From a virus (lineage: Duplodnaviria > Heunggongvirae > Uroviricota > Caudoviricetes): 42,521 nucleotides of DNA. The notes under the pieces are model-generated. The model had not been told where the DNA came from and did not search any database. It was given only the letters and a program-made list of their open reading frames with translations. How positions within the stretch are numbered: the stretch's first letter is position 1; each line of letters begins with the position of its first letter. The position numbers were made by a program, and so were the translations under genes. Below are positions 1 through 2,504 of this stretch, one piece after another. The DNA lies in the IMG/VR virus record IMGVR_UViG_2706794696_000015. The stretch is one strand, 5' to 3'.

Positions 1-573
1 ATGTTTTGCGAAGAAAAAGTAGCTCAAATGGCTGCATACCTACTTCTTAAGCGAGGTGGGCGCATGGCATATCTGAAATTGATGAAGCTGCTCTATCTGT
101 CTAACCGCAAGTCGATTTTGAAGCATGGCAGGATGATCGGCGAAGATAGCCTTTACTCTATGAAATTTGGTCCAGTCATGTCGAATACGCTGAACTTGAT
201 TCGTGGTAAGGCTGAAGGTATTGGTGACTACTGGTACAACCTGATAGAGACGAACGGGCATGATGTGTTGTTGCGTTCAGATCCGAGGGAAATGGATGCA
301 GACGAGGTCTTTGATGAGTTGAGCCGTGCAGATATCCGGATTTTAGATGAAATCTATTCTCTGTATGGGCATATGAACCGATTTGATCTCGCAAACATGA
401 CGCATTTAGAAAGCGTTTGTCCAGAGTGGCACAATCCTGGCAATTCTCGTAAGCCTATAGACCTGAAAGAAATGCTGATCAGTGAGGGTAAAAGCGAGGA
501 TGAGGCTAATCGTATAATTGGCAAAATGGAAGAATCTCAGAAACTTAAGGAATTTTCTTTGCAATTATCATGA
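1..573 (+). CDS. Panacea (DUF4065) domain protein, putative antitoxin-type component
   Basis: 190 aa ORF; N-terminal motifs LKLMKLLYL and MKFGPVMSNTLNLIR match the DUF4065/GepA pattern as I recall it; stop overlaps next start (ATGA at 570-573). Confidence 0.55.
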   Translation: MFCEEKVAQMAAYLLLKRGGRMAYLKLMKLLYLSNRKSILKHGRMIGEDSLYSMKFGPVMSNTLNLIRGKAEGIGDYWYNLIETNGHDVLLRSDPREMDADEVFDELSRADIRILDEIYSLYGHMNRFDLANMTHLESVCPEWHNPGNSRKPIDLKEMLISEGKSEDEANRIIGKMEESQKLKEFSLQLS

Positions 574-989
574 CGGATTATCAGCCATACAGGAAAGGAA
601 CTGTGCTTGCCCCAACTGGGCCATGCAATCATCTTCATGTGATTTGTAATGATCCTGTTTATTACCCCGTTAACGATTGTTATTGTGTTTTAGTTGTTAA
701 TATTTCTAGTATCAAGGATGGTGTCCCCCACGATCCGTCTTGCGTCTTGAATTCTGGTGATCATCGCTTTATCAAGCATCCAAGTTATGTTGTTTACGCT
801 GAAGCTATAATTTGGCGAGTGGATAACATGGTTAGAAAGCAGCGATCGGGTGAGATTTCCGTTCATGATGATATGCCAGAAGCTACATTCAATAGAATTC
901 TGGACGGTTTTGATATATCTGATGAAGTTACGCCAAAGAACCTTAAATTTAAAAATAAATATTGCGTATCATCTATTGATGATGAGTAA
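570..989 (+). CDS. Hypothetical protein coupled to the Panacea-domain gene; candidate toxin partner
   Basis: 139 aa ORF with start overlapping the upstream stop; Cys/His-rich; no family recognised. Confidence 0.4.
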   Translation: MTDYQPYRKGTVLAPTGPCNHLHVICNDPVYYPVNDCYCVLVVNISSIKDGVPHDPSCVLNSGDHRFIKHPSYVVYAEAIIWRVDNMVRKQRSGEISVHDDMPEATFNRILDGFDISDEVTPKNLKFKNKYCVSSIDDE

Positions 990-1028: not shown

Positions 1029-1202
1029 ATGGAAGATCAAAAAGCAACCAAGCCACAGGTTAAGTTCGACACAATGAAAGCATTCGCAGGTATGGGTGCT
1101 GCTGTTGAAGTTCTGATGAAGGCTGCTCCTAATGCGTTCACTCACGCTACTGTCTCTGGTAAAGAGCAGCAGGGTAAGCTTCGTCGTCGCAAAGCAGCAT
1201 GA
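1029..1202 (+). CDS. Small hypothetical protein (57 aa; alternative start at 1074)
   Basis: Short ORF MEDQKATKPQVKFDTMKAFAGMGAAVEVLMKAAPNAFTHATVSGKEQQGKLRRRKAA, below the ORF-track length cutoff, ending just before a hairpin terminator. Confidence 0.3.
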   Translation: MEDQKATKPQVKFDTMKAFAGMGAAVEVLMKAAPNAFTHATVSGKEQQGKLRRRKAA

Positions 1203-1249: not shown

Positions 1250-1531
1250 TTAGTGATGTTCTTTGCCCTTCTGTTTGCCTGTTCTGACCTGTTCCCACTC
1301 GATACGTCCTTCTTCTCGTCTTTTGTCTATGTATTCCGCAAGATCCTGAATATTGATGCAACGTTTTGCTTTTTGTGATGTACCGATGCGATATGTAGGT
1401 ACAGGCAACTTACAAGCGTTTGCTTTTGCTTCTGCTGTGGCTGGACTCATACCAAAGTATTTTTGACTAACTGCTGAGAGTTCAATGTTTGGGGTATTGA
1501 ATTCAGCCATCAGTAAAAACAAGGTATTCAT
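1250..1531 (-). CDS. Small DNA-binding protein, PrtN/excisionase-like (tentative)
   Basis: 93 aa ORF with a basic C-terminus; resemblance to PrtN/AlpA-type regulators is by eye only. Confidence 0.35.
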   Translation of the reverse strand: MNTLFLLMAEFNTPNIELSAVSQKYFGMSPATAEAKANACKLPVPTYRIGTSQKAKRCINIQDLAEYIDKRREEGRIEWEQVRTGKQKGKEHH

Positions 1532-1567: not shown

Positions 1568-2362
1568 TTACTTATTCATTTCAATAATATTATTTTCTAT
1601 CATTGATTTATTTAAAACCAAAGAAGGAGCAAGATGGTTGTCTATTTTAAACAATGCATAACTTTTAAACTGTTGGTGATATCCGTAACTAATAAGGATG
1701 CTAGAAAAATCTCTTAATTCATCTTCTTTTAAAAAATTAAAATGAAATGGGTTGTCACCATTTATGAACAATGAAACATCTATTATGCAGTATTTCTCTC
1801 CGTTGTCATTTGCATAGAAAAAAATATAAGACATTCTGTTTGTTAAGACAATGCCATTAAATTTTCTTATGTCTGTAGCTATTTTGTTTTCCATGTTTGG
1901 TGCTACATATTTATTTTCAGAAATACATTTAATTTCATCTCCAGATGTCGTGATTATATAAAAATGAAACTTATCAGAAATATCTAACTTAACTACGCCA
2001 TCATTATTGTAAAGGCTGCTAAATTTTGGTGGTTCAACTTTTAAAGAATCATAGTTCTTTAAAAGAAGAGGGGAGTCAAATTTAATAACTTGTAGTATCC
2101 CTTTACCTTCAACCTCCATATTGATTGAAGATATAGCAATTGCATTATCTCTTTTATTATTCAGGATTATGGTTGATATATGCATGTCATATATTCTACT
2201 TGCATTTGCTGAATACGACACTGTCACCTTTTTTGATATTTTTTGCACGCCAAAATATATAGTGAAGGCAGCGGCAAGAATAGATAAGAATTTAATGTCA
2301 AATAAGGACCATAGCCACATTAGTTGCTCAATTGCTTCAGAGTTAATCATTTGCTTTACCAT
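1568..2362 (-). CDS. Hypothetical membrane-anchored protein in an AT-rich island (start uncertain: 2350, 2362, 2383 or 2401)
   Basis: Long ORF in strongly AT-rich DNA; N-terminal hydrophobic segment LWSLFDIKFLSILAAAFTIYFGV; no family recognised. Confidence 0.45.
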   Translation of the reverse strand: MVKQMINSEAIEQLMWLWSLFDIKFLSILAAAFTIYFGVQKISKKVTVSYSANASRIYDMHISTIILNNKRDNAIAISSINMEVEGKGILQVIKFDSPLLLKNYDSLKVEPPKFSSLYNNDGVVKLDISDKFHFYIITTSGDEIKCISENKYVAPNMENKIATDIRKFNGIVLTNRMSYIFFYANDNGEKYCIIDVSLFINGDNPFHFNFLKEDELRDFSSILISYGYHQQFKSYALFKIDNHLAPSLVLNKSMIENNIIEMNK

Positions 2363-2504
2363 TATCGCTGTAATACAACACATGTGTGTATATATACGCA
2401 ATGCAATTATTTTGCAAGTGCTTCATTTACTATCAATAGCTACGTCACGTTATTGTTTAATGGTTCTTTATAGGGGCGGCAATAGTTAAAATTATCGCTT
2501 CCGT

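Follow-up and report, generated by a model that had tools for sequence, protein, structure and literature searches.

SocAB of Caulobacter crescentus, a type VI toxin–antitoxin (TA) system, includes the founding Panacea protein: the antitoxin SocA acts as a ClpXP proteolytic adaptor for SocB, and the SocB toxin binds the DnaN sliding clamp. Toxins of the MazF/PemK/Kid/EndoA family (PF02452) are endoribonucleases that cut single-stranded RNA at specific sequences; they are paired with AbrB- or RHH-type antitoxins (MazE, PemI, Kis), and their catalytic residues are Arg25/29 and Thr48/52 in MazF, and Arg73, Asp75 and His17 in Kid.

The Panacea domain was named by Kurata et al. (2022, PNAS; PMC8832971), who predicted 1,268 PanAT loci with toxins falling into 88 clusters. 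Their data favor neutralization of the toxin (PanT) by direct binding of the antitoxin (PanA), as opposed to the proteolytic adaptor mode of SocAB. In cluster T6, the pair of P. moraviensis LMG 24280 (PanT WP_083201923.1, PanA WP_083354365.1) was characterized experimentally: the toxin, assigned to the 'EndoA/PemK/MazF-family RNases' by HHpred and given the laboratory result 'TA', specifically inhibited protein synthesis in metabolic labeling, was neutralized by its cognate PanA and co-purified with it (PMC8832971). Panacea antitoxins with a small downstream partner are also carried by temperate phages, as in the Burkholderia prophage phi52237, Salmonella phage Emek and E. coli MOD1 pairs.

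Here we analyzed a 42,521-nucleotide stretch of DNA (hereafter the window; IMG/VR virus record IMGVR_UViG_2706794696_000015), the first two open reading frames of which, panA (ORF1) and panT (ORF2), had been singled out in an earlier sequence-only reading as a candidate TA or defense pair. The two genes add another prophage-encoded example from E. coli to the PanAT family catalogued and validated in 2022, and leave current concepts unchanged. By analogy with the P. moraviensis pair, we consider it likely that panA–panT is a type II PanAT TA module whose toxin has a divergent MazF fold, carried by a lambdoid E. coli prophage that integrates in dusA. The computations made here cover the identity of the domain, the fold, the strictness of the pairing, the family to which the pair belongs and the purifying selection acting on it, while toxicity, neutralization, complex formation and translation inhibition are taken from the P. 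moraviensis homologue (PMC8832971).

PanA is a stand-alone Panacea protein

The panA gene (positions 1–573, plus strand) encodes a 190-residue protein that the sequence-only reading had assigned to the Panacea (DUF4065) domain from two motifs. Both motifs are real, LKLMKLLYL at residues 25–33 and KFGPV at residues 55–59, and they contain residues that are invariant among homologues: K26, K29, L30, Y32, R36, G57 and P58 are unchanged across 20 of them. The HMM search that the reading had proposed bore the assignment out, since PanA matched Pfam PF13274 (SocA_Panacea) over residues 27–137 with a score of 67.9 bits (E=1.8e-18), above the gathering cut-off of 25.7 bits. RefSeq/PGAP labels the identical protein 'Panacea domain-containing protein' (WP_000458583.1).

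Although SocA carries the same Pfam domain, PanA scored only 13.5 bits against the NCBIfam SocA_antitoxin equivalog (NF047745), whose cut-off is 190. PanA has neither an N-terminal HTH nor any further domain besides Panacea; after the Panacea domain come a TH..CPEW.DP.GSS.PI motif, which is conserved, and a C-terminal tail of variable sequence (residues ~155–190). PanA lacks a DNA-binding domain that would account for autoregulation, a point that we counted against the interpretation preferred here.

Start codon and translational coupling of panT

The panT gene (positions 570–989, plus strand) encodes a 139-residue putative toxin. As the sequence-only reading had described, its ATG (570–572) overlaps the TGA of panA (571–573) in an ATGA sequence at 570–573. 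This start is used in GenBank phage records, but RefSeq/PGAP places it at GTG 603, giving a 128-residue protein (WP_014640052.1) and no overlap with panA. Residues 1–11 (MTxYxPYRKGT) are kept in 54 homologues, synonymous codon changes leave the peptide intact, and strand β1 of the predicted PanT structure starts at residue 10. Because of this conservation, of the synonymous nature of the codon changes and of the position of strand β1, ATG 570 is the true panT start and the overlap with panA is real; the toxin start given by RefSeq-type annotation is thereby corrected. The GTG 603 call (window 570–605, region L001 8570–8605) hides the ATGA overlap and cuts off the beginning of strand β1.

The sequence before ATG 570 holds no Shine-Dalgarno motif at a proper spacing, a TAAGGA being located 18 nt upstream, which suggests that panT is translationally coupled to panA. 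Such ATGA coupling would control the stoichiometry of PanA and PanT.

panA and panT form a conserved pair

We recovered 32 genomic loci with PanT relatives (30–87% identity), which belong to Enterobacterales, Vibrionales, Methylococcales, Piscirickettsiaceae, Sutterella, Burkholderiales, Rhizobiales, Sphingomonadales, Acetobacteraceae, Rhodobacteraceae and others. Upstream DNA was available for 31 loci, from alpha-, beta- and gamma-proteobacteria, and each of the 31 has a PanA homologue immediately upstream on the same strand, with phmmer E-values against the window PanA ranging from 1e-114 to 8e-11. The association is therefore reciprocal, the relatives of the toxin lying themselves beside PanA in 31/31 loci. 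The two genes overlap by 4 nt, as in the window, in 18 of these loci; in the others the spacing goes from −1 to about +27 nt, and it is always within 30 nt. The same arrangement was found on a metagenomic contig encoding a PanT relative of 28% identity, the neighbor of which matches the Pfam Panacea domain. This pairing is far beyond chance.

The divergence of PanA and that of PanT run in parallel across the loci, which argues for a stable, co-inherited pair and not for partner swapping. When compared with their Kosakonia and Pluralibacter orthologues, both genes display a low pN (~0.08–0.10) and a pS of 0.73–0.82 (0.73–0.79 for panA), i.e. saturated synonymous sites, indicating that both panA and panT are under purifying selection.

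The single PanT sequence gave no match in Pfam (E<=1), NCBIfam, PADLOC or PDB sequences; searches of PDB sequences with two PanT profiles and a Pfam scan of 56 diverse family members (E<=0.01) gave none either. Noise matches to ICMT, the DapC aminotransferase, IgG and the MS2 coat protein were dismissed in the Pfam, NCBIfam, PADLOC and PDB searches. The sole database match of PanT is PHROG 19071, of unknown function. While a word-indexed search yielded 62 relatives, all from Gammaproteobacteria, a PanT profile run against 1.84 billion cluster representatives gave 2,703 matches at E<=1e-3, 929 of them at E<=1e-10. PanT thus represents a large family (at least 2,700 clusters at 50% identity) that is hereby exposed as lacking a Pfam, NCBIfam or PADLOC model. 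In the exact-sequence look-up, one 541-member cluster at 90% identity was found to hold PanA, the 139-residue PanT and the 128-residue PanT, although PanA and PanT are unrelated proteins, together with a 232-residue 'DUF4065' variant; it is perhaps an artefact of clustering or of read-through gene calls.

The window PanT and toxin cluster T6

Dataset S1 of Kurata et al. (PMC8832971) lists in cluster T6, the rows of which are scored 4/5 to 5/5, the PanT of 'Yersiniaceae bacterium 2016Iso4' (WP_101821906.1, gap −1) and that of Pantoea septica LMG 5345 (gap −4). Both strains are among the loci that we recovered (L008 and L009, the latter being Pantoea septica LMG 5345), and the gaps are identical to those of Dataset S1. 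Furthermore, an exact-sequence look-up identified one of our homologues (P0224) as WP_101821906.1. This protein is 57% identical to the window PanT (profile E=1.2e-42), and its being a listed T6 toxin places ORF2 in cluster T6. The taxon spectrum of the window PanT family is also the same as that of the T6 rows. Judging by these sequence identities, the window PanT is a member of cluster T6.

The link between the window PanT and the P. moraviensis toxin is made by shared cluster membership and by a homologue encoded by the Pseudomonas phage Sirocco. Between the Sirocco and window PanTs the identity is 48%, a value that we take as the approximate identity to Pseudomonas-type T6 homologues, and the N-terminus of the Sirocco PanA, (V/M)IFSEQKVAQ, coincides exactly with the one that Kurata et al. 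restored for the P. moraviensis PanA. Several features are common to the window and P. moraviensis pairs: a stand-alone Panacea antitoxin with a near-identical N-terminus (MFCEEKVAQ and MIFSEQKVAQ, respectively), genes that overlap or abut with the antitoxin in first place, and an EndoA/PemK/MazF-like predicted fold of the toxin. They differ in their location, since the window pair lies in an E. coli lambdoid prophage beside attL, whereas the P. moraviensis pair is chromosomal and was scored 'NotPhage'. In the Sirocco record (L037, OR683410.1), the 132-residue PanT homologue adjoining the PanA gene (1486–1884) is unannotated; a 44-residue ORF on the opposite strand (1741–1875), located within panT, is annotated instead.

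Cluster T1, which comprises pairs from E. coli MOD1, phage Emek and Sutterella, was also considered as the family of the window pair. The PanT family profile finds no match in the Emek partner (hhalign probability 0.2%), so T1 is a different family. Emek was not found by tblastn of the phage collection with either PanT or PanA. The phi52237 toxin, which is nucleotide-cyclase-like, also differs from the window family.

Several T6 PanTs from Pasteurellaceae bear the NCBI product name 'terminase' in Dataset S1. As none of the 56 family members scanned (these Pasteurellaceae proteins not being among them) has a significant Pfam match, this name is probably a propagated mis-annotation.

Predicted fold and candidate active site of PanT

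The predicted structure of PanT comprises a β-barrel of divergent MazF/Kid/CcdB fold (residues 10–83), i.e. an SH3-like barrel of the CcdB/MazF type, and a helical C-terminal extension made of three helices (residues 84–131). Foldseek matches were weak (E ~4e-3), which we weighed against the preferred reading. The better ones are all MazF/Kid RNases, and the fold matches toxins only. On the basis of this model, PanT is predicted to be a divergent MazF-fold toxin. The claim of the sequence-only reading that the partner belongs to no recognizable family was overturned, PanT having both a MazF/PemK-type predicted fold and a place in a catalogued toxin cluster. The fold is also unrelated to that of SocB.

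The divergence from MazF-type toxins is considerable. Identities in structural alignments are 9–16%, with no detectable sequence similarity, and about 95 of the 139 residues align, the helical C-terminal region of PanT being longer than in the aligned MazF-type chains. The PF02452 PemK_toxin profile is matched neither by the window PanT (Pfam, E<=1) nor by the 56 family members (E<=0.01), and this lack of a link to MazF at the sequence level likewise weighs against the preferred reading. An hhalign comparison of the PanT family alignment with five MazF/Kid/EndoA sequences gave a probability of 0.1%; such a comparison is too weak a test to count against the MazF-fold result. Finally, the antitoxin is a Panacea-domain protein here, as opposed to the AbrB/RHH-type partners of MazF, PemK and Kid.

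The description of ORF2 as Cys/His-rich stood as far as composition goes (six Cys and six His), but only H21, C58 and H65 of these residues, along with D55, are conserved across the wider family. The near-invariant positions of the wide family are H21, L22, V43, D55, C58, G63, H65, F67, S72, Y76, G113 and S117. H21 is invariant in both the closer and the wider alignment, in which it is the sole invariant column, and the window PanT keeps every family-invariant residue. A zinc site built on the H-x-H-x2-C pattern was rejected as unlikely, since neither H23 nor C26 is conserved across the wider family.

From these alignments, we propose H21 (codon 630–632), D55 (732–734), C58 (741–743) and H65 (762–764; codons within 630–764, plus strand) as candidate active-site residues. 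This conserved His/Asp/Cys/His set differs from the catalytic Arg/Thr of MazF and Arg/Asp/His of Kid; the Arg/Thr pair is not evident among the conserved residues of the PanT family. By eye, NHLHVIC of PanT resembles HRPAVVL of MazF, and VNISS resembles VPCTT. Based on this likeness of motifs, we infer only tentatively that H21 may occupy the position of the MazF Arg, and S46/S47 that of the Thr.

The prophage setting of panAT

Of 5,426 complete E. coli genomes, about 205 contain panAT at 98–100% identity, and so do phages SKA5 and Lys8385Vzw; both ORFs are intact in the window. The PanT family was found in nine temperate phage records. Some 4% of complete E. coli genomes, and several temperate phages, carry this pair under the labels 'Panacea domain-containing protein' and 'hypothetical protein'; the present analysis puts a name on it and gives these poorly annotated genes a testable function.

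Looking at the sequence upstream of the window, as the sequence-only reading had recommended, revealed the attL end of the prophage. The prophage sits within dusA in E. coli AR_0085, where an orphaned dusA 5' fragment (35 codons with the promoter side; region L001 7643–8000, before window position 1) ends 253 bp upstream of panA in the same orientation. No plus-strand terminator was predicted between this fragment and positions 1221–1246. Since the dusA fragment reads toward panA with no terminator in between, integration might put panAT under host dusA transcription; expression of panAT in the lysogen could thus be driven, possibly, by the orphaned dusA promoter. Promoter-like sites upstream of panA are not commoner than in shuffled sequence, and a weak sigma-70-like site (TTGACC-17-TAAACT, L001 7846–7874) is no better than expected by chance. 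When the phage genome is circular, the integrase gene (int) is located upstream of panA and divergent from it, with attP between the two. The sequence-only reading had located the pair in an early-left accessory region; panAT is actually located outside the early-left operon, with attL on one side and xis on the other, and, being encoded on the other strand, converges with the xis and exo genes.

Downstream of panT, a 57-residue Ala/Lys-rich ORF (PHROG 2741; 1029–1202, plus strand) is probably co-transcribed with panAT. It does not belong to the TA module, as it is also present in prophages devoid of panAT. A terminator scan predicted an intrinsic terminator at 1221–1246 (L001 9221–9246), a GC-rich hairpin with an 11-bp stem flanked by A-runs and T-runs. 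The xis gene (1250–1531, minus strand) converges with the panA–panT–orf57 unit at this shared hairpin, which could end transcription both of the rightward unit and, leftward, of xis. With the 57-residue ORF found elsewhere without panAT, the terminator at 1221–1246 and attL upstream, panAT is not embedded in a conserved operon of more than three genes.

In phage mEp460 and about 360 further E. coli genomes, only window positions 1016/1019–1250 (the 57-residue ORF and the terminator) are shared, and homology breaks sharply 27–30 bp past the panT stop. There, panAT is replaced by a 177-residue hypothetical protein (WP_000956557.1; mEp460 gp23; L038 2784–3317, L039/L040 2281–2814) that has no match in Pfam or PADLOC. 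As the site can hold either panAT or this protein, the slot is variable, with two or more alternative cargoes, and panAT is accessory cargo of lambdoid prophages that integrate in dusA, placed beside their attL. Its GC content (38–44%) is below the E. coli average.

Mode of action and biological role

The TA part of the earlier proposal is well supported because the partner belongs to the T6 family, in which the P. moraviensis toxin has been validated as PanA-neutralized and translation-inhibiting; the defense part has no direct support, PanA, PanT and the 57-residue ORF being without a match in PADLOC-DB 2.0 at E<=1. By analogy with P. moraviensis, PanA would bind PanT directly and neutralize it in a stable complex, and free PanT would most likely block protein synthesis. 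The predicted fold suggests that PanT is probably an endoribonuclease, the cleavage of RNA possibly relying on H21 and H65 instead of the Arg/Thr pair of MazF.

Two other readings bear on whether PanT is a ribonuclease, or a toxin at all. The E. coli copy could be a non-toxic, decayed relic, or PanT could have a non-toxin phage function, the pairing reflecting something besides neutralization. Eight predicted PanTs were non-toxic in E. coli in the assays of Kurata et al. (PMC8832971), the T1 pairs of the E. coli MOD1 prophage and of Salmonella phage Emek being scored 'not toxic', a single T6 member was assayed, and some T6 members carry the 'terminase' label; we weighed the assay results against the preferred reading. 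Yet purifying selection on both window ORFs is strong, neither is disrupted, the copies in about 205 genomes share at least 98% identity, all family-invariant residues are kept, the fold matches only toxins, and 'terminase' finds no support in Pfam, all of which makes the relic improbable. Even less probable is a CcdB-like gyrase poison, or another toxin with a non-RNase target: the barrel is of a type shared with CcdB, but the better structural matches are MazF/Kid RNases throughout, and inhibition by the P. moraviensis homologue was specific to protein synthesis (PMC8832971). We therefore retain a MazF-like, translation-inhibiting toxin neutralized by PanA as the likely reading.

What such a TA module does for the prophage is a separate issue. 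panAT might serve mainly in abortive infection or superinfection defense, PanA sensing a phage and freeing PanT so that translation is shut down, which is compatible with the TA mechanism. Ernits et al. (2023; PMC10440598) hypothesize that Panacea is a sensor, and demonstrate anti-phage protection by other TA systems. The slot beside attL, in which prophage relatives hold another gene, the low GC content and the occurrence of the family in temperate phages go in the same direction; however, a variable slot is just as typical of non-defense morons, PADLOC-DB gave no match, and no phage-defense test of a cluster T6 PanT was found in the TA literature examined. Defense as the main role is, in our opinion, a minority possibility. 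We attach the same modest likelihood to addiction, whereby loss of the prophage would lead to loss of a labile PanA and poisoning of the cell by a stable PanT. Addiction follows classical TA logic and fits with the location of panAT no more than 250 bp from the end of the prophage, beside the int/xis recombination module, as well as with the antitoxin-first order and translational coupling, which would hold PanA at or above the level of PanT; the stable complexes and direct-binding neutralization reported by Kurata et al. (PMC8832971) speak against it. The two roles are not mutually exclusive. A bolder and rather doubtful proposal is that T6 PanTs constitute a distinct MazF-fold branch in which a His/His site (H21 and H65, with D55 and C58) replaces Arg/Thr, and that the prophage copy is a lysogen-specific abortive-infection defense, activated upon integration via the orphaned dusA promoter, with Panacea as the phage sensor. 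As an E. coli-native relative of the sole validated T6 PanAT, the window pair is convenient for studying the triggers of Panacea and for comparing lysogen defense with prophage stabilization.

A second putative accessory gene near attL

Beyond xis, a 277-residue ORF (1568–2401, minus strand) with a hydrophobic N-terminus has a GC content of 28%, compared to 40–50% around it. It has no Pfam or PADLOC match and matches PHROG 14996, of unknown function, with E=3e-178. In related prophages the position is taken by a 3'-5' exonuclease gene, and the 277-residue ORF has the appearance of an accessory gene acquired separately.
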